A DNA stretch of 64,000 bases from Candidatus Pacearchaeota archaeon (GTDB lineage Archaea > Nanobdellota > Nanobdellia > Pacearchaeales > GW2011-AR1): positions 1,779 to 65,778 of the forward strand of contig JAGLOA010000003.1 in assembly GCA_023139205.1 (NCBI GenBank), read 5' to 3'. The position numbers were made by a program, and so were the translations under genes. Below the pieces are notes generated by a model. It was not told the DNA's origin, searched no databases, and worked only from the letters and a program-made list of their open reading frames with translations. Below, one piece after another: positions 3,314 through 51,298 of the stretch; the stretch's first letter is position 1; every line of letters starts with the position of its first letter.

Positions 3314-3616
3314 TTATCCTGAAGTAACATTTCCTTTCCAGTTCATCTTAATAGCATTCACAGTTATTGATTTTAAATTATTAAAAAAAGAACCGAACCA
3401 AACAAAATAAAGACTAGATGCCTCCTTTAATCCATCAATAGTTCTAAAATTAACTTCTTTTCCTTCAAAAACATAACCAGAAGTTACATAAAGAAATAAT
3501 ATCATAGCAATTAACAAAATAGCAAAAATTTTATGTTTCATCCTCTTTAATTCAACAATAACCCAAATAGCTATAACCAAAGAAGCTACAAGGAGTATCG
3601 CAACACCGATTTCCAT
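3314..3616 (-). CDS. small membrane protein (hypothetical)
   Basis: 100 aa with hydrophobic helices. Confidence 0.35.
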   Translation of the reverse strand: MEIGVAILLVASLVIAIWVIVELKRMKHKIFAILLIAMILFLYVTSGYVFEGKEVNFRTIDGLKEASSLYFVWFGSFFNNLKSITVNAIKMNWKGNVTSG

Positions 3617-3656
3617 AACAATTAAAATAAAAACAAGTATAAAAATATTTCTAATA

Positions 3657-3781
3657 GCCCCACCAGAATTCTCAAAGAAGTTCTCGCCTGTCTTTCAGGT
3701 TCTCGCACCCTTTTTTATGATGTGCTCTTTTTGGATATCGGGGCCTTGGAGGTCATCCCTTGGGAAACCTTGGTTCGAAAA
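3657..3781. repeat. GC-rich mosaic repeat element B, copy 1, abutting the 3' end of tRNA-Gln
   Basis: Modules it shares with the copies at 26930-27037 and 53059-53178: cagaattc, gaagttctcgc(acc), ggggcct(t/c)g(g/a)ag, ggaggtcatccc(t/g)tggga. Confidence 0.5.
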
Positions 3782-3854
3782 TAGCCCTACCAGGATTCGA
3801 ACCTGGGTCACAAGGTTCAGAACCTTGCATACTTGACCACTATACTATGGGGCT
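3782..3854 (-). tRNA. tRNA-Gln (anticodon CTG)
   Basis: Reverse complement is AGCCCCA..TAGGGCT with one C/A acceptor mismatch. Anticodon stem CAAGG/CCTTG with loop TTCTGAA; T arm CCAGG-TTCGAAT-CCTGG. Starts with AGCCCC like archaeal tRNA-Gln. Confidence 0.7.
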
Positions 3855-3975
3855 TGATATTTTTACAAATTAAAACTATTAAAAACTTCCGAATCAATAA
3901 ATTTAAAGAATACTTCTTCTTTAAAAATAAATAGAAGAAAAAGAGATAGGGAAAGTCTCTACTTATTTCAGACAG

Positions 3976-4182
3976 GTGAATGTAGCTGCCATAAAACTTT
4001 CAGATAATTTGAAAGTAGGCGACAAAATACAAATCAAAGGGCATACAACTAAATTAGAACAAGAAGTAAAAAAGATCCAAATAGATAGAAAAGAGGGTAC
4101 AGAAGCAAAAAAAGGTGACCATACAGGAATAAAGGTTTCTGAAAAAGTTCGACCAAATGACAAAGTTTTTCTAGTAGAATAA
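3976..4182 (+). CDS. small beta-barrel protein, possibly EF-Tu domain-2-like (hypothetical)
   Basis: 68-aa ORF starting at GTG; G/K/V-rich strand-like pattern. Confidence 0.3.
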   Translation: MNVAAIKLSDNLKVGDKIQIKGHTTKLEQEVKKIQIDRKEGTEAKKGDHTGIKVSEKVRPNDKVFLVE

Positions 4183-4218
4183 AATTTATAAAAGAATTTC
4201 AACTTATTTTTCTTAAAT

Positions 4219-4379
4219 GCCCCTGTAGTCTAGAGGCCAAGGATGCCACCCTCTCAAATCAGATTAAGAGAAAGAGGTGATTTAGTCTCGGTGAGAGAAA
4301 AAGTCTATGCATCTCAATGCAGCCTTTTCTCTGTATTTGGAGAACGGTGGTGACCCGAGTTCAAATCTCGGCAGGGGCG
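4219..4379 (+). tRNA. intron-containing tRNA, most likely tRNA-Glu (anticodon CTC), with an approximately 88-nt intron after position 37
   Basis: Perfect acceptor GCCCCTG/CAGGGGC and T arm CCGAG-TTCAAAT-CTCGG. Anticodon stem CCACC(4246-4250) pairs with GGTGG(4346-4350) only after removing about 4257-4344; anticodon loop is CTCTCAA. Confidence 0.7.
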
Positions 4380-4576
4380 TTTTACAGATGCATTCGTTAT
4401 TCATACATAAAACAAGAATGTATCTGTCCGATATTCGGACAAATTAGTTTAAACAAAAAAAGGAAGCTTCTAAAAGAAACCATTGGTGTCTTTTAAGTTC
4501 AAATTTTGGAAGGGGCGTTCAACTATAATTTTAAAAAGAGTTTGAGATTTATATTAAAAAAGAGGAATTTTTCAAA

Positions 4577-44925: not shown

Positions 44926-45579
44926 TCAATTCAAATGCTTCTCAATATCCTCAATAGTCTCTAAATCAGTTATTTTAACAGATTCGTCAATTAAAATAGT
45001 TGGAAATTCTTTTACATTATATTTATCCAAAAGCAGATTAATTGAAGAAATCTCATTATCTGCTGCGATAGGGATCAGCATGATCTTGTTTCCCTTTTCT
45101 TCTTTTAATTCAGATAACAATTTTGAGAAAAATCTCTGCTTAGATTTTTGTTCAATTGACGGACCATCATACTTATAAAAATAAACAAGATTATGGTAGT
45201 CAGAATTACACTTTTCTTTTATCCTGATACTATTAATCCAAAATAAAGTTCTCAAAAGATCATACCTCTTATGTTGAAAAATTATTCCCTGATTAATTTT
45301 ATTTGCATCTTCATATCTTTGAATAAGTAAAGCCTCTTCAAAAATTTTATCTGCAAATTTTATATTTTCCTCAACTAAAATATCACAATCAAAATCAATA
45401 ATTTCTAATGCATCTTTTTGTATTCTTTGATCAAGAAGCTCCATTTCAGCTTCTAAATACAATTTATTCACCTTATCGATTCTTGAAGATTCAAGCATAT
45501 AACCCATAAAAATCCCAATATTAAAAACAACAAAAGTTAATATTAATGCATATAAAAAAAAATATTTCTGGTTAACCAT
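44926..45579 (-). CDS. membrane-anchored hypothetical protein
   Basis: N-terminal TM helix; 217 aa. Confidence 0.35.
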   Translation of the reverse strand: MVNQKYFFLYALILTFVVFNIGIFMGYMLESSRIDKVNKLYLEAEMELLDQRIQKDALEIIDFDCDILVEENIKFADKIFEEALLIQRYEDANKINQGIIFQHKRYDLLRTLFWINSIRIKEKCNSDYHNLVYFYKYDGPSIEQKSKQRFFSKLLSELKEEKGNKIMLIPIAADNEISSINLLLDKYNVKEFPTILIDESVKITDLETIEDIEKHLN

Positions 45580-45580
45580 T

Positions 45581-46804
45581 TTATCTCCACTGATAGTTTC
45601 TTTTAATAAATTTGTATATTGCAGTTATCAAAATAGGAGCATACATTATAAGATAAACAAATGAGTAAAAAAGAAGATTAAAAATATTCTGCTTCTTCAG
45701 TATTTTTTCTTTCATAATAGATAAAACTAAAATAGTGAAAGTAAATCCAAGGATAAATAAAATAAGTCCCAAATAATTAAGAAAGCTGGGAGTAATATAA
45801 AGGTCATTCATGGTTATAAGAGGGGTTCCTATTTGAATAGAATATTTAGCGAAAATATAATCTCCCAAAATTCTGGTTGTAATTAAATAAACAAATAAAC
45901 TCAGCCCAAGCAATCCTAAAAACAATTGAATCACAAAAAAAGGCAATATAAAAAGACCGAGCATACCTTTTCTTAAAAAAGACTTTTTATATTTTGAAAT
46001 ACATTGCAATCCCCCAACAGTCCATCTTATTCTTTGCTTATACCAAGGTTTAACTTTGTCTGGGACAATTGTCGTTGCATTAGTAGACAAACACATTCTT
46101 ACTTTATAACCTGCATGAATCAAATGCCACGCAATTTCAATATCCTCAGTCATATTTGTTGTATCAAAACCGCCAATTTCTTTTAATAAAGATTTTCTGT
46201 ACATCGCCAAAGGCCCAGGAGTAACATAAATTCCATCAACATAACCAAGAAGTTTTCTTGTAAAAGCAATTACATTATATTCAATTACCTGCAACTTCTC
46301 AAAAAATTTATTTCTGTTTCTCGGAACAAAAACACAAGTAGCAGCCCCAACTTTCTCATCATCAAAAAAACCAACCAATTTCTTAAAAGAATCTTTAGCA
46401 GGATAACTATCTGCATCCACCACAACCACCAATTCCCCTTTAGCCATTTCAACTCCCTGATTCAAAGAATCTCCTTTTCCAGAATTTTTTTTATTCACCA
46501 ACTTCAACTTAGGATATTTTTTCAACAAACTTTCAACAATTTTTTGAGTATCGTCTGTAGAACCATCATTTAAAACAATTAACTCTCTTATAGGGTATTC
46601 TATGTCAAAAACAGCTTCAATTGTACCCTTAATAGTGCTCTCCTCATTAAATGCAGGAACCAAAACAGAAATAGAATATTCTTTTTTAGTTTTTGGAAAA
46701 TCCCATAATCTCTTTTTGTTCCAAATAAATAATAATAAAAATAAAAAAAGAAAATAAATCGAAAGAAACATAAATCCAAGATAGATTATTGAAAGAATTT
46801 CCAT
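45581..46804 (-). CDS. processive family-2 glycosyltransferase (membrane; synthase-like)
   Basis: DGSTDDT, DAD, and QRIRW (QxxRW) motifs plus multiple TM helices. Confidence 0.7.
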   Translation of the reverse strand: MEILSIIYLGFMFLSIYFLFLFLLLFIWNKKRLWDFPKTKKEYSISVLVPAFNEESTIKGTIEAVFDIEYPIRELIVLNDGSTDDTQKIVESLLKKYPKLKLVNKKNSGKGDSLNQGVEMAKGELVVVVDADSYPAKDSFKKLVGFFDDEKVGAATCVFVPRNRNKFFEKLQVIEYNVIAFTRKLLGYVDGIYVTPGPLAMYRKSLLKEIGGFDTTNMTEDIEIAWHLIHAGYKVRMCLSTNATTIVPDKVKPWYKQRIRWTVGGLQCISKYKKSFLRKGMLGLFILPFFVIQLFLGLLGLSLFVYLITTRILGDYIFAKYSIQIGTPLITMNDLYITPSFLNYLGLILFILGFTFTILVLSIMKEKILKKQNIFNLLFYSFVYLIMYAPILITAIYKFIKRNYQWR

Positions 46805-47357: not shown

Positions 47358-47447
47358 AACTTAACAAAAGAAATGATGTTTAAAAGTATTTTTGATTAGT
47401 TAATTCATCACAACAATTTTTATAAAGTTTAGAGATACATTTTTAAT

Positions 47448-47660
47448 ATGATTAATGAAGAATATTTTAAAGAAAAGATAGACAAAGAACATATATCTCC
47501 GGAAGATATTTTAAATTCATATAATCCTTTAACAAAAGAGATGATTGAAAAAGGAAAAATTTGGAACCATGTTTGGGGACAAACTGATTGGGGACAAGAA
47601 TCTTGGGGACGAGAATGGGGCAAGGATTGGGGAAAAGAAACTTGGAATCAAGCTAGCTAA
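47448..47660 (+). CDS. candidate RiPP precursor peptide with C-terminal tandem W-G-x-x repeats
   Basis: 70 aa; the C-terminal 30 aa are VWGQTD WGQES WGRE WGKD WGKET WNQAS, from imperfect 12-15-bp DNA repeats. The stop is 1 nt before the next gene. Confidence 0.45.
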   Translation: MINEEYFKEKIDKEHISPEDILNSYNPLTKEMIEKGKIWNHVWGQTDWGQESWGREWGKDWGKETWNQAS

Positions 47661-47661
47661 A

Positions 47662-48363
47662 ATGTCTGTTTTAAACTATTCTCTAGGGAAAAACAAAAAA
47701 ATCTTATTCTTTGGGGTTAATCACAGTAATTCTGATTTTTTACAAATAAAGAATTTAAAAGATAATCTTGTAAAATTTAATCCAGATCTTATTTTAATTG
47801 AAGGGGGATTTGAAAGAGCAAATTTTGAAACTGAAAAAGAATCAATATCTCAGGGGGAATTGGGATTTGCATCTTATTTTTCAAAGAGAAATAATTTTGA
47901 ACTTCTCGGAAATGACCCTCCTGAAAAAGATTCGATAAACTTTCTAAATTCTATTTATGGGGGAAATTTTTCTTTTTTGTATTTTGTTTTGAGAAATTTT
48001 TCTTATTTCATCTCAATTAAAAAGATTTCTTCAGATGAAAAAGGGTTGCTTTTTGCTATAGAAGACTTTGTAAATACTTTTAATGAAGATATTCCTCTTT
48101 TCTCAATTCAAAAATTTAAAGAATTTTTCTTTACAATATTCAAAAAGCCATTTTCTTTTAAAGAGAATTATTCCTCATACGCTTCTTCCCTATCTCAAAA
48201 CAAAAAAATGAAGCAGGCCACAAAAAGACTAAGTCTTTTTAGAGATTTTTATATGTTTAACAAAATATTAAATTCCCTTAAAGAAAAAGATAGAATTTTT
48301 ATAATTAAGGGAGAAAGTCATTTAGAAATATTTAAAAGATATTTTAAAGATTTTTTTGAGTAA
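47662..48363 (+). CDS. TraB/GumN-family protein
   Basis: ILFFGVNHSNSD..PDLILIEGGFER near the N-terminus and IFIIKGESHLE near the C-terminus, which match the TraB family pattern. Confidence 0.4.
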   Translation: MSVLNYSLGKNKKILFFGVNHSNSDFLQIKNLKDNLVKFNPDLILIEGGFERANFETEKESISQGELGFASYFSKRNNFELLGNDPPEKDSINFLNSIYGGNFSFLYFVLRNFSYFISIKKISSDEKGLLFAIEDFVNTFNEDIPLFSIQKFKEFFFTIFKKPFSFKENYSSYASSLSQNKKMKQATKRLSLFRDFYMFNKILNSLKEKDRIFIIKGESHLEIFKRYFKDFFE

Positions 48364-49609
48364 AAAAATGATATTTCAATTAGAAACATTTGAAGACGAA
48401 ATAAAATTCATTGCAGATAAAGATACTGGTAAATGGGTTCTTGGAAGAGACATAACACAAGAAGTTATTAAAAAAATTTCAAATCCATTTTTAGAAAAAA
48501 TTCCTAAACGTGTTGGCAAAATTGTTTTAAATATGGGAAGAGAATGCAATCTTGACTGCACTTATTGTTTAGTAGGAAATTTAAAAGAACAAACTTTAAA
48601 ACTAAATATGAAAGTTGGAAAAAAAGTTCTAGAAGCAGTTTCTGAGATGGATCTACATGAAAGAAATATAGTATTTCATGGGAGTGAACCTATGATGAAT
48701 TATAAAGTTATTAAGAAATTACTAAGGTTTAATAAAGATAAATTAAGAAACAAGATTTCTTTTTCCATACAATCAAATGGGACTCTTTTTACAAAAGAAA
48801 ATTTAAGATTATTAGAATCTTATCGTGTGGGAATTGGAATTAGTTTGGATGGTAAAGAAGAACATCAAAACAAACAAAGACCCTACAAAAAAGGAATGTC
48901 CTCTTATAAAAAAGTTATTAAAAATATGGAGATGGTAAAAAATTTTCAAGGAAATATCTCTACTATAACTGTTGTTACTAAAAATAATGTTTCTGATTTA
49001 GTTAAAATTACTAAATCTTATGAAAATCAAGGAATAGAATCTGTCTTATTTGCACCTGTCAGTCCAACAAAAAATTTTCAAGACATCCCAAATCAAAAAA
49101 TTCTTACACAAAACATACAAGAGGTTATAGATAAATACATAAAAAACACAGAAAAAGGTGTTTCCACCTTAAAGATTAGAAATTTAAGGGATTATTTAAG
49201 AATATTTTTTAGAGAAAAAACAACTTCAAACTGCTTACAATGCGGATCTGGAACATCTCAACCAATTTTAGCAATTGATTCTGATGGAACTATTTATCCC
49301 TGTGATTTTTTTTGGGGAAATGAAGAATATAAAATCGGAAATATTTTTAAAATGAGCCTTAAAGAAGCCTTAATTTCAGAGAAAAATATGAGATGTTTTA
49401 GAAATGTTAACGAAATTCCTACATGTGGGGATGCTTGCAATTGGAAACGCTTTTGTGGAGGAGGATGTCCTGGAAGCAATGTTTCATCAGATAGAGGATT
49501 AAATGAAAATTCTCATTATTGCCAATATAACAAAAAAATGTTTGAATATATAGCTAAAAAAATTCCCTTGTTGCACACAAAAGGATTAATTGGGAAGCTT
49601 ATTGAATAG
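48356..49609 (+). CDS. radical SAM enzyme with a C-terminal SPASM domain
   Basis: CNLDCTYC (CX3CX2C) and FHGSEP; C-terminal CLQCGSG..PCDFF..CGDACNW..CGGGCPG. Confidence 0.85.
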   Translation: MSKKMIFQLETFEDEIKFIADKDTGKWVLGRDITQEVIKKISNPFLEKIPKRVGKIVLNMGRECNLDCTYCLVGNLKEQTLKLNMKVGKKVLEAVSEMDLHERNIVFHGSEPMMNYKVIKKLLRFNKDKLRNKISFSIQSNGTLFTKENLRLLESYRVGIGISLDGKEEHQNKQRPYKKGMSSYKKVIKNMEMVKNFQGNISTITVVTKNNVSDLVKITKSYENQGIESVLFAPVSPTKNFQDIPNQKILTQNIQEVIDKYIKNTEKGVSTLKIRNLRDYLRIFFREKTTSNCLQCGSGTSQPILAIDSDGTIYPCDFFWGNEEYKIGNIFKMSLKEALISEKNMRCFRNVNEIPTCGDACNWKRFCGGGCPGSNVSSDRGLNENSHYCQYNKKMFEYIAKKIPLLHTKGLIGKLIE

Positions 49610-49716: not shown

Positions 49717-50289
49717 ATGAAAAAGAAAAAAAGAGGGATAACAATAAAATTAGTTTTTTCTAACAGATGGCTTTATACTTTTATTGTAATTGGAATTTTA
49801 GCGATAATTGGTGTTGGTGTTTACGCATTAACAGCAGGAGAGACTCCAGACCCAGGACATAATATCCAAAATATTGGTCCTCCAAGTGATTGTGTTAATG
49901 GACAAGTTTTGCAATTTATTGATGGAGCTTGGGGATGTGTGAATTTACCTGGAGGAGAGACTATTCTAAAAACAAAAATAGTAGAAATAGGTAATTGGGA
50001 TATGAATGCTAATAGCTATGTGATGGTAGCTCATGGCTTAGGTAGCAATTATAAAAAAATAAGAGATATACGAGTTATGATTCGCAGAGATGATAATTTA
50101 GGTCATTTTTTACTTGATAAATTTCAAGATGCAACTGATCCTGTTTTAATTATGGGAGGAGTTTATTCAATAACTAGTGTAAATATTGTTATACAAAGAC
50201 GAACTGATGGTCATTTTGATCGTGATACTTTTGAGGTTATGGGCGATGATGGAAACAGAGGTTGGATATACATAGTTTATGAAGAATAA
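49717..50289 (+). CDS. hypothetical secreted/membrane-anchored protein
   Basis: N-terminal TM; 190 aa. Confidence 0.35.
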   Translation: MKKKKRGITIKLVFSNRWLYTFIVIGILAIIGVGVYALTAGETPDPGHNIQNIGPPSDCVNGQVLQFIDGAWGCVNLPGGETILKTKIVEIGNWDMNANSYVMVAHGLGSNYKKIRDIRVMIRRDDNLGHFLLDKFQDATDPVLIMGGVYSITSVNIVIQRRTDGHFDRDTFEVMGDDGNRGWIYIVYEE

Positions 50290-50298
50290 AACTAAATC

Positions 50299-50907
50299 TT
50301 AAATCTCAGCATCTGTCCAAAAATCATATATCTTAAATTTGACTTTTTTTTCATTAAAATAATCTTTAATTTTCTTTACACTTTCCAATGGAATAAGTAT
50401 GGCACTTTTTCCTAATTTAATTCCGTTCAATTGTTGAACCAATCCAAGGTAATTTTGTTTATTTAATTTAAACCCAAATAATTTTCTAAACACTCCTATT
50501 CTTTTTTTATCAGGCTTTATATTTTCAAAAACAAAAACAGAATAAGAATAATTTTTTTCTGCATTTGCTCTATATTTTCCATAAAGCAAAATTCCAGTAT
50601 TTATTATTGCTCTTTTCAAATCTTTCCACTCTTCACTCTCAATATCCCCCGCAATAATTGAAAACTCATTTTTCACCCCTTTCAACCTCCATTTCTTAGC
50701 ATTTTCAGTTTTATAAAATTCTTCTTGCAAAACCTGTATCTTTTTATTCTTTTTTTTATCAATATCTACAAATAAATCTATATCTGAATCAGAATCAAAA
50801 TCTCCCCTTGCAACAGAACCATAAAGAATAATCTTTCTTATGTCTATCTTTCGCACTAAAAAACCTGCAAATTCCATAGCATAAGAAATAAGATTATTTC
50901 TTTTCAT
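50299..50907 (-). CDS. nucleotidyltransferase (MNT) domain protein
   Basis: GSVARGDFDSDSDIDLFV motif. Confidence 0.65.
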   Translation of the reverse strand: MKRNNLISYAMEFAGFLVRKIDIRKIILYGSVARGDFDSDSDIDLFVDIDKKKNKKIQVLQEEFYKTENAKKWRLKGVKNEFSIIAGDIESEEWKDLKRAIINTGILLYGKYRANAEKNYSYSVFVFENIKPDKKRIGVFRKLFGFKLNKQNYLGLVQQLNGIKLGKSAILIPLESVKKIKDYFNEKKVKFKIYDFWTDAEI

Positions 50908-51298
50908 TTTTTAATCCCTCATTTATAATTTTTCTTAATTCCTGAAAATTCCTTAATACATTCTCTATTCTGAATTTTGGTTTTCTTGAACCATAACACA
51001 AAGCAATTCTTTCAAGCTCTATTTCTTTCATAAAAGAAAGAATTTTATTCTTTAAAGGAAAATCAAAAGGAAGTTTCTTATTAATTAAATTTTTATTTTT
51101 AAAAATTCTATGGTCAAACTGATCTCCAGATCCCTCTATTAAATGAAGTTTATGTAAAAATAAAGAAAACAATTCAACAGAACCTTGCGAAACATTAAAA
51201 CCAATATTTCTCTGATTTTTTATAACTCCCTCATCTATTGCCCGATTAATATTTTCAAGATGTTCTTTAAATGCTTCTTCATGTTGTTCAATTTTCAT
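50894..51298 (-). CDS. putative HEPN-like partner of the MNT (antitoxin/toxin pair 2)
   Basis: Alpha-helical 134-aa protein overlapping the MNT gene by 14 nt; no clear R-x4-6-H motif. Confidence 0.4.
   Translation of the reverse strand: MKIEQHEEAFKEHLENINRAIDEGVIKNQRNIGFNVSQGSVELFSLFLHKLHLIEGSGDQFDHRIFKNKNLINKKLPFDFPLKNKILSFMKEIELERIALCYGSRKPKFRIENVLRNFQELRKIINEGLKNEKK

Follow-up and report, generated by a model that had tools for sequence, protein, structure and literature searches.

A probable three-gene RiPP operon with a tryptophan-repeat precursor and a radical SAM/SPASM enzyme in a Pacearchaeota archaeon

In the triceptide systems (XyeB, GrrM/OscB, FxsB, PauB, ChlB, MicB), a radical S-adenosylmethionine (rSAM) enzyme with a SPASM domain is encoded beside the leader-plus-core precursor of a peptide that is made by the ribosome and modified after translation (RiPP), and one enzyme modifies several units per precursor. 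Triceptides are defined by the motif Omega1-X2-X3 (PMC12912966), where Omega is an aromatic residue and the polar X3 is often Asn, and Aro-Xaa-Asn is the motif of strained cyclophane RiPPs (PMC9062424). In the WGK/tryglysin (WgkA/B/C) and Xenorhabdus WprA/B/C systems, the crosslink site is a Trp-x-basic triplet. WgkB links Trp to Lys in W-G-K, forming two bonds within the triplet, WprB links Trp to Arg in W-P-R through C-gamma and not C-beta, and WprA holds three W-P-R units, each modified independently (PMC11851443). The PapB ranthipeptide maturases, CteB (SCIFF) and anSME are rSAM enzymes whose SPASM domain carries two auxiliary clusters, and they abstract hydrogen from a side-chain carbon of a polar residue. 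For archaea, the literature searched holds only bulk antiSMASH and genome-mining predictions of rSAM RiPPs, none of them characterized (PMC12144867). Here, we describe a very probable RiPP operon in a 64,000-nucleotide stretch of DNA from Candidatus Pacearchaeota archaeon (assembly GCA_023139205.1, contig JAGLOA010000003.1; hereafter the window), which consists of genes for a 70-residue Trp-rich precursor, a predicted TraB/TIKI-fold hydrolase and an rSAM/SPASM maturase.

The precursor operon and its family

The three genes follow each other on the forward strand in the order given by an earlier note that was made from the letters of the window. As that note said, 1 nt separates the peptide stop codon (47658-47660) from the ATG of the middle gene (47662). 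After the middle-gene stop, a gap of 4 nt leads to the rSAM ATG at 48368 in the NCBI gene model (413 residues). This start is ambiguous, and the 8-nt overlap with the middle gene and the length of 417 residues in the earlier note hold only for an alternative TTG start at 48356. The host lineage is DPANN, as supposed before, and proteins identical to the rSAM enzyme and the peptide are deposited at NCBI under Candidatus Pacearchaeota archaeon. The features of the operon are listed below.

47417..47426, forward: TATA-box-like element TTTTTATAAA, read from the sequence, with its centre about 26 nt 5' of the peptide ATG
47448..47660, forward: precursor peptide gene, 70 aa (NCBI: hypothetical protein KAJ87_01500), the sole frame open from ATG to stop
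47496..47513, forward: conserved leader motif S17-P-E-D-I-L22, from the alignment and a leader hidden Markov model (HMM); presumed maturase recognition element
47562..47657, forward: core W39-S70 with seven Omega-x-X3 units, from unit composition and family position statistics; predicted modification sites
47662..48363, forward: TraB/TIKI-fold protein, 233 aa, without signal peptide or transmembrane segment; predicted hydrolase and candidate leader peptidase
48368..49609, forward: radical SAM/SPASM peptide maturase, 413 aa, from domain and family scores, an AlphaFold2 model and a family of about 50 proteins
48368..48520, forward: N-terminal extension of the maturase, about 50 aa, from AlphaFold2 secondary structure; presumed leader-binding module
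48545..48568, forward: CX3CX2C motif (C64, C68, C71; CNLDCTYC), the radical SAM [4Fe-4S] site, inside the Pfam Radical_SAM match
49232..49522, forward: SPASM region with 8 invariant Cys, pattern CX2C...GX4C...CX3CX5CX3C...C, with a Pfam SPASM match

The peptide open reading frame (ORF) at 47448-47660 (+) translates as MINEEYFKEKIDKEHISPEDILNSYNPLTKEMIEKGKIWNHVWGQTDWGQESWGREWGKDWGKETWNQAS. Among its C-terminal 32 residues are 7 Trp, five of them in WG dipeptides, arranged as the units WNHV/WGQTD/WGQES/WGRE/WGKD/WGKET/WNQAS with the triplets WNH, WGQ, WGQ, WGR, WGK, WGK and WNQ, and the spacers between the Omega-x-X3 units consist of 1-2 acidic or polar residues. The 70-residue ORF ending in W-G repeats is thereby confirmed, with seven Trp units of which five are W-G-Q/R/K. 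Across the window's 34 long ORFs, the frequency of Trp is 0.92%, at which the binomial probability of at least 7 Trp in 32 residues is about 1.5e-8. A six-frame scan of the 64 kb revealed one other stop-free stretch with at least 5 Trp per 32 residues, lying off-frame inside a glycosyltransferase family 2 (GT2) gene.

At the DNA level, the core (47568-47657) has a G+C content of 47.8%, well above that of the whole window (29%) and of the leader part (23%), in line with the GC-rich coding, unlike its surroundings, that had been noticed before. Tandem Repeats Finder detected just one array, with a 15-bp unit and 1.9 copies (47588-47616, score 51), and the first 9-12 nt of the five WG units are 73-80% identical. 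The repeat is therefore clearer in the protein than in the DNA, and the 12-15-bp tandem repeats proposed earlier come down to one 15-bp array with only 1.9 copies. A minus-strand PQ-repeat ORF (47429-47623) was also considered and rejected. Stops occur in every antisense frame in 17 of 17 Trp-rich loci tested, the sense frame is always open, and the minus-strand reading is thus not the conserved one.

Homologs of the enzyme were searched for among 5.8 billion proteins. About 50 close relatives (33-61% identity, E < 1e-50) were obtained, and beyond them similarity falls abruptly, the next matches being generic SPASM enzymes with at most 29% identity; the family occurs in Pacearchaeota, Nanoarchaeota, Woesearchaeota, Phycisphaerae and Bacteroidota. 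The DNA of these relatives was gathered from genomes, metagenomes and via exact-protein look-up. A small same-strand ORF lies 5' of the enzyme or the middle gene in 27/27 distinct clade-A loci with enough upstream DNA. These small ORFs have in common the leader motif [ST]-P-x-[DE]-[IL]-[LVFM], which reads SPEDIL in the window, and an aromatic-rich C-terminal core that starts 10-25 residues after it. The cores are hypervariable, with sequence, length and number of repeats changing from relative to relative. With this leader motif and the aromatic cores, the clade-A enzymes adjoin small peptides and not sulfatases, as the earlier note had expected for a RiPP system. A leader HMM of 20 positions, trained on 10 loci, was then used to search 32,041 six-frame ORFs from 1.19 Mb of DNA, with about 120 loci of distant rSAM enzymes as negative controls. 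Its 13 best non-training matches are the 13 held-out precursor ORFs, all at the expected position, and in the control loci no match scores below E = 1. Furthermore, the core classes are each monophyletic on the enzyme tree. Combined, the co-located precursor, the held-out leader matches and the core type tracking the enzyme tree support the RiPP operon reading.

The window belongs to the type 1 cores, which are Trp-rich, occur in DPANN archaea and are mostly accompanied by the middle gene. It groups with L161-L163, and the precursor of L163, the nearest relative with upstream DNA (enzyme 58% identical), reads ...INWFQDDFTKEWGKDWGKDMWRRTI and keeps WGKDWGKD. The WGK(D) unit is thus conserved while its copy number differs. 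The module FNNWSNWGNGPTDPG is found once or twice, depending on the precursor. Likewise, the core module (E/Q)(R/Q)FNNWSNWGNGPTDP(G/A) occurs twice in L014:1012-1245 and P0261 versus once in L094, P0266 and P0269, a copy difference that points to whole-module duplication inside the precursor gene. A comparison of repeat number between relatives, which the earlier note had put forward, thus shows WGKD and module counts that vary by locus, and no stops were seen in the Trp-rich frame of any relative.

Other cores were observed in the wider family. Type 2 cores consist of PEFQH followed by 3-4 (Y-x-A-G-P-P-P) repeats in variable number (L003, L086-L090, L095, L096 and L166), and their hosts are Phycisphaerae and a bin labelled Patescibacteria. 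Type 3 cores follow GFSKEVPF..SPPY.xFP(W/F)..F and were seen in Draconibacterium and archaeon BMS3Abin17 (L004, L005). The type 2 and type 3 loci are bacterial cousins of the operon and have no TraB-like gene. In the more distant sister clade B (L006, L007, L097-L109, L122, L123 and L149; enzyme at 32-35% identity), the gene order is a second rSAM protein of about 420 residues, an unrelated protein of about 232 residues (MQFKIIT...) and then the enzyme. In L003 (a Phycisphaerales metagenome-assembled genome), a CRISPR-like repeat array at ~3430-4560 is situated directly 5' of the type-2 precursor and rSAM gene; its repeat reads VAPFTGAWIET or SLPSRERGLK, depending on the frame.

The radical SAM/SPASM enzyme

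Both domains of the enzyme score above the Pfam cut-offs (Radical_SAM PF04055, 65.4 bits vs 29.5; SPASM PF13186, 35.7 bits vs 21.5), in agreement with the CX3CX2C motif and C-terminal SPASM region described in the earlier note. In an alignment of 40 family members, C64, C68 and C71 are invariant, as are the SPASM cysteines C293, C296, C316, C357, C361, C367, C371 and C389. Eight invariant SPASM cysteines are enough for two fully Cys-ligated auxiliary [4Fe-4S] clusters. At L170:1985-3220, gene calling splits the rSAM gene of an otherwise intact precursor/TraB-like/rSAM operon in two (260 + 131 aa), reflecting either a frameshift (decay) or an assembly error.

The enzyme falls into no curated family. 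Among NCBIfam models, 73 SPASM families were matched and 0 cut-offs passed, and the archaeal and bacterial relatives likewise reach no NCBIfam cut-off. The top matches are all peptide- or protein-maturing SPASM enzymes below their cut-offs, the best being PapB (180 bits/cut-off 340), anSME (TIGR03942, 164/349) and CbpB (162/375). The cyclophane synthases follow, with YhhB (NF041707) at 128.5/445, AmcB (NF041718) at 120.1/425, GrrM/OscB (TIGR04261) at 103/310, FxsB (TIGR04269) at 92.6/370 and XyeB (TIGR04496) at 83.3/450. The AlphaFold2 model, with a predicted local distance difference test (pLDDT) score of 93.7, resembles CteB, anSME, ChlB (a multiple-cyclophane synthase; Foldseek E 1.7e-18), TigE and SuiB. 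Sequence profiles rank anSME (5e-53), CteB and ChlB first and place SuiB far off at 1.7e-6. The parallel to streptococcal rSAM enzymes drawn earlier holds for the W-G-K in the precursor, but the enzyme is only remotely StrB/SuiB-like.

The N-terminal ~50 residues form three beta-strands and one short helix in the model, with invariant G25 and W27 (TGKWVL). This extension is not present in anSME, whose alignment begins at query residue 58. It is presumed that this beta-sheet module binds the leader; the earlier note named a putative RiPP recognition element (RRE) of ~60 residues at this end. The rSAM/SPASM assignment stood up to the domain and structure comparison, and the N-terminus carries the strands and helix with no PqqD/RRE sequence signal. 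A separate RRE gene was not found in the operon. A viperin-like defence enzyme was considered and rejected, because the PADLOC pVip match (55 bits) covers the generic rSAM core only and there is no defence context.

Core composition, predicted chemistry and the middle protein

Position statistics were calculated over 17 Trp-rich type-1 cores, the window included (407 residues, 96 aromatic positions). At +2 from an aromatic residue, 96% of positions carry N/D/K/Q/R/H/E (Asn alone accounts for 50%), at +1 79% carry G/N/S/P, and at +3 54% are occupied by a further aromatic residue. The dominant aromatic spacing is 3. The strongest positional constraint is at +2, not at -1 or +3. Phe can stand for Trp, as in FNNFGNFGNGP (L093) and FSNFGNFGNGP (P0270). 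W-x-X3 (X3 = Q/R/K/N/H/D) is therefore a better description of the unit than the WG(K/Q/R/E) of the earlier note; Trp and the polar third residue stood, but Gly is not kept family-wide. The Omega1-X2-X3 core of the triceptides is thus present, with 7 W-x-X3 units in the window and a polar +2 residue across the family. Cys is absent from the Trp-rich cores (0/407 residues in 17 precursors), which excludes the thioether chemistry of ranthipeptides and sactipeptides for those cores. Taken together with the lack of Cys, the Omega-x-polar rule is most economically explained by hydrogen abstraction on X3 and one C-C bond to the indole per unit. On these sequence patterns, we give an aromatic-to-X3 crosslink at the units somewhat better than even odds.

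The proposed mechanism would run as follows. The 70-residue precursor would bind the maturase through its leader motif (HISPEDIL), probably at the N-terminal beta-sheet module, and the CX3CX2C cluster would cleave S-adenosylmethionine to a 5'-deoxyadenosyl radical. This radical would take an sp3 hydrogen, most likely from C-beta, from X3 (Q/R/K/H/N) of each W-x-X3 unit. The resulting carbon radical may then add to the indole two residues upstream, with the two SPASM auxiliary clusters accepting the electron. Each unit would thus become a small cyclophane with a loss of 2 Da, up to seven in tandem, after which the TraB/TIKI-fold protein would cut off the leader. The analysis shows the anatomy of the operon, the class of the enzyme, the conserved precursor family with its leader and core, the Omega-x-polar rule and the TraB fold; leader binding, the crosslink with its atoms, the peptidase role and any export or biological role are inferred. 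Overall, we assign a probability of roughly 0.6 to the favoured reading, i.e., a RiPP operon of a previously uncurated enzyme-precursor family that acts by this mechanism. A stronger version is tentative and rather doubtful. It would make the locus the founding example of a DPANN-centred poly-cyclophane RiPP class, in which one enzyme of a SPASM lineage apart from all characterized cyclophane synthases staples up to seven tandem W-x-(Q/R/K/N) units and a soluble TIKI/TraB protease is the dedicated leader peptidase.

The TraB/GumN likeness of the middle protein in the earlier note stands at the fold level, where the alpha/beta TraB/TIKI fold with its core of parallel beta-sheet was confirmed, and not at the level of Pfam, where DUF5694 is the sole match of the window protein and stays below its cut-off (24.5 bits vs 27.5). 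An exhaustive HMMER search recovered 1078 relatives, and a word-indexed search found only 4. PF01963 (TraB_PrgY_gumN) matches weakly in 11/50 sampled relatives (best 1.3e-5), with no match above threshold for the window protein. Across 50 diverse relatives, G18-x-x-H21, E47, R194, D195 and G217-x-x-H220 are invariant or nearly so, and a second Glu (E58/E60) is invariant in the close clade only. Compared with the TIKI/TraB/PrgY/GumN superfamily (EreA, ChaN, HopBA1, RRSP), the window protein is very divergent and below Pfam gathering thresholds; it is a short, soluble protein of 233 aa that has no membrane anchor. Its homologs lie between precursor and maturase in 19 loci, with a Trp-rich core wherever the core is visible. 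The superfamily includes proven endopeptidases with a 2His/2Glu site (PMC6254334), and Tiki/TraB proteins have been proposed as leader peptidases in graspetide loci (PMC8939145). A TraB-like protein tied to an rSAM RiPP operon was not described in the literature searched. Leader peptidase is the most likely role of the middle protein, although we put it at slightly less than an even chance.

A number of observations weigh against the favoured reading. The enzyme is no closer to the cyclophane synthases than to PapB or anSME, so that homology cannot predict its chemistry, and its N-terminal extension gave no PqqD/RRE or other Pfam signal at E <= 10 in 8 members. Type 2 cores have Ala at X3 and fit the Omega-x-polar rule less well. 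At L110:1454-1693, a related clade-B locus, a Cys-rich peptide ...LSPRDLFDAFLNDSYKTTCCHGNGTCHSCYSNCDMPG carries the same leader motif, which suggests a leader-recognition system shared across chemistries. Together, the Ala of type 2 and this Cys-rich core imply that the wider family is chemically heterogeneous. Furthermore, no transporter or immunity gene was found within the operon or nearby, and all data come from metagenome assemblies. On the side of the middle protein, the Glu that RRSP has two residues before the first His is missing, and the Trp-rich loci L001/L082, L085 and L091 have no middle gene. A lone TraB-like homolog, P0109 (34% identical; L168:3501-4199/L169:1269-1967, GCA_964596705.1), has ThiS and SET-domain genes as neighbours and no rSAM gene or Trp-rich ORF, in a context that is incomplete since the contig ends 350 nt downstream.

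The likeliest rival is a RiPP operon in which the enzyme modifies the Trp-rich core by another rSAM chemistry. This could be a double Trp-Lys annulation as by WgkB, a Trp-Trp or ether link from one unit to the next, larger rings from W to the residue before the next W, or a non-crosslinking change of the polar residues. Such chemistry would agree with an enzyme similarity that is spread evenly over many SPASM chemistries, and with the spacing of the window units, which is 4-5 residues instead of 3 and includes conserved acidic residues. In addition, the -1 position is 76% polar, so that the partner residue could precede Trp, and the precedents of two bonds in W-G-K by WgkB and of C-gamma instead of C-beta in WprB show how the chemistry can deviate (PMC11851443). 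Against this, the top positional constraint lies at +2 (96% polar) and not at -1 or +3, and the daropeptide motif Omega-X-Omega (PMC12912966), expected for ether links, is nearly absent, an aromatic spacing of 2 being found in 1/80. We consider this rival unlikely. PrgY and TraB limit endogenous pheromone in enterococci. By analogy, and as the main alternative to leader removal, the middle protein could be a self-protection or signal-control factor and the peptide a cell-cell signal, a view that the TraB fold and the relatives' weak PF01963 matches would suit, as would the Trp-rich loci L001, L085 and L091 that manage without the gene and the one homolog situated away from an rSAM gene. However, the window protein has neither membrane anchor nor signal peptide, unlike PrgY, and its gene is wedged between precursor and maturase with gaps of 1 and 4 nt, a position kept in 19 loci. 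The catalytic-type His/Glu/His is conserved and no receptor or regulator gene lies nearby, which makes this role improbable.

The small ORF might also encode the precursor of a peptide-derived redox cofactor instead of a secreted natural product, as known from PqqA/PqqE, MftA/MftC or quinones derived from Trp. Enzymes of the PqqE and MftC types likewise belong to the SPASM rSAM proteins and act on small peptides, PqqE (6c8v) is among the structural matches of the enzyme, and the operon holds no transporter. Cofactor precursors, however, are strictly conserved at the reacting residues, whereas the cores here are hypervariable; no partner oxidoreductase is conserved in the neighbourhood, and seven tandem units would make little sense, so that a cofactor pathway is very improbable. 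Least probable, and largely refuted, is the view of the enzyme as an anSME-like protein maturase, or another housekeeping SPASM enzyme, beside an incidental or non-coding Trp-rich ORF. Here, no solved structure matches better by sequence than anSME (5e-53), and TIGR03942 scores 164 bits, but this is under half of the cut-off of 349, and anSME is without the ~50-residue N-terminal extension. Moreover, there is no sulfatase gene in the window flanks or related loci, and the small ORF is kept in position, strand and leader motif over ~27 loci with only the sense frame open.

The favoured reading thus places the locus near several described systems and inside none of them. Like the triceptides, it pairs an rSAM/SPASM maturase with a leader-plus-core precursor of several Omega1-X2-X3 units, and one enzyme is proposed to modify them all. 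It differs in that the enzyme lies outside every curated family of three-residue cyclophane-forming enzymes (83-128 bits vs cut-offs of 310-450), that the hosts are DPANN archaea instead of bacteria, that up to seven units stand in tandem, and that a TraB/TIKI-fold partner takes the place of the usual proteases, with a product chemistry that we infer. The precursor resembles those of the WGK/WPR systems in holding W-G-K twice and W-G-R once, plus W-G-Q twice. However, the family as a whole conserves neither Gly at X2 nor Lys at X3, the separate RRE/chaperone protein (WgkC, WprC) and the quorum-sensing regulators of the streptococcal systems (shp/rgg) have no counterpart in the operon, and the enzyme is only a remote relative of the StrB/SuiB group (SuiB 1.7e-6). 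WprB has a twitch domain and not a full SPASM domain, in contrast to the 8 conserved SPASM Cys here. The highest sequence and structure similarity of the enzyme is to PapB, CteB and anSME, which also have two auxiliary clusters and abstract hydrogen as is proposed here, yet these need Cys (thioether) or the Cys/Ser of a sulfatase motif, the Trp-rich cores are without Cys, and the window-family scores are about half of the cut-offs of their models.

Neighbouring genes and implications

The element TTTTTATAAA is compatible with an archaeal promoter, which by general knowledge of such promoters would give a leaderless or nearly leaderless tricistronic mRNA. Upstream and divergent lie ScpB and the GT2 glycosyltransferase, as had been described. 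The GT2 gene (45581-46804, reverse strand) encodes several C-terminal transmembrane-like segments and matches Chitin_synth_2 weakly (22 bits, short of the cut-off), as would fit a processive polysaccharide synthase; the gene and a 217-residue ORF of no family (44926-45579) together abut scpB. Downstream follow a 190-residue ORF of no family, a nucleotidyltransferase, aRF1 and a class I aminoacyl-tRNA synthetase. The 190-residue ORF (49717-50289, forward strand) has a hydrophobic N-terminal segment, and an AT-rich spacer of 107 nt lies between the rSAM gene and this ORF. It matches no Pfam, NCBIfam or PADLOC family and is not kept beside the enzyme in other loci, and it was therefore rejected as an operon member. 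The nucleotidyltransferase (50299-50907, reverse strand; Pfam Polbeta/NTP_transf_2, PADLOC candidate PDC-S09) overlaps by 14 nt a 134-residue ORF of no family (50894-51298, reverse strand). This pair, situated 700 nt 3' of the operon, looks like an MNT/HEPN-type toxin-antitoxin or defence module. No regulator or receptor gene was found near the operon.

The logic of the operon, a leader-guided SPASM maturase on repeated aromatic motifs, is known, and the finding is not conceptually surprising to RiPP specialists. New, as judged from sequence comparison, would be the enzyme clade, the precursor family, the partner protein and the unusual host group, which together make a well-delimited and tractable family in DPANN archaea. 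NCBIfam release 20 and Pfam contain neither the enzyme family nor that of the precursor, and searches of the literature on rSAM RiPPs of DPANN archaea, Pacearchaeota or Woesearchaeota, on Trp-rich archaeal precursors and on a TraB-RiPP link gave only generic surveys. The family may or may not be among the unnamed 'Aro-Xaa-Asn' clusters of a sequence similarity network (PMC9062424). The system works like a triceptide, WGK or WPR-type pathway, yet its enzyme belongs to none of those enzyme families, nor to PapB or anSME.

The natural precursor variants (Trp/Phe-x-Asn triplets, WGK repeats and bacterial PPY repeats) form a ready test set, well suited to asking what decides the chemistry of a SPASM enzyme that lies outside the known cyclophane-synthase families. 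The operon also gives the prokaryotic TraB/TIKI proteins, which are poorly understood, a concrete testable function, and multi-stapled Trp peptides are attractive scaffolds for peptide engineering. If the stronger, poly-cyclophane version is true, no natural product pathway would have been defined in DPANN archaea before this one, and a prokaryotic TraB-like protein would for the first time be given a biochemical role in the maturation of a RiPP. DPANN genomes are tiny, and a dedicated three-gene peptide pathway is a notable investment for them; its product, on that stronger version, might serve the interactions with hosts or competitors that these symbionts with reduced genomes rely on.

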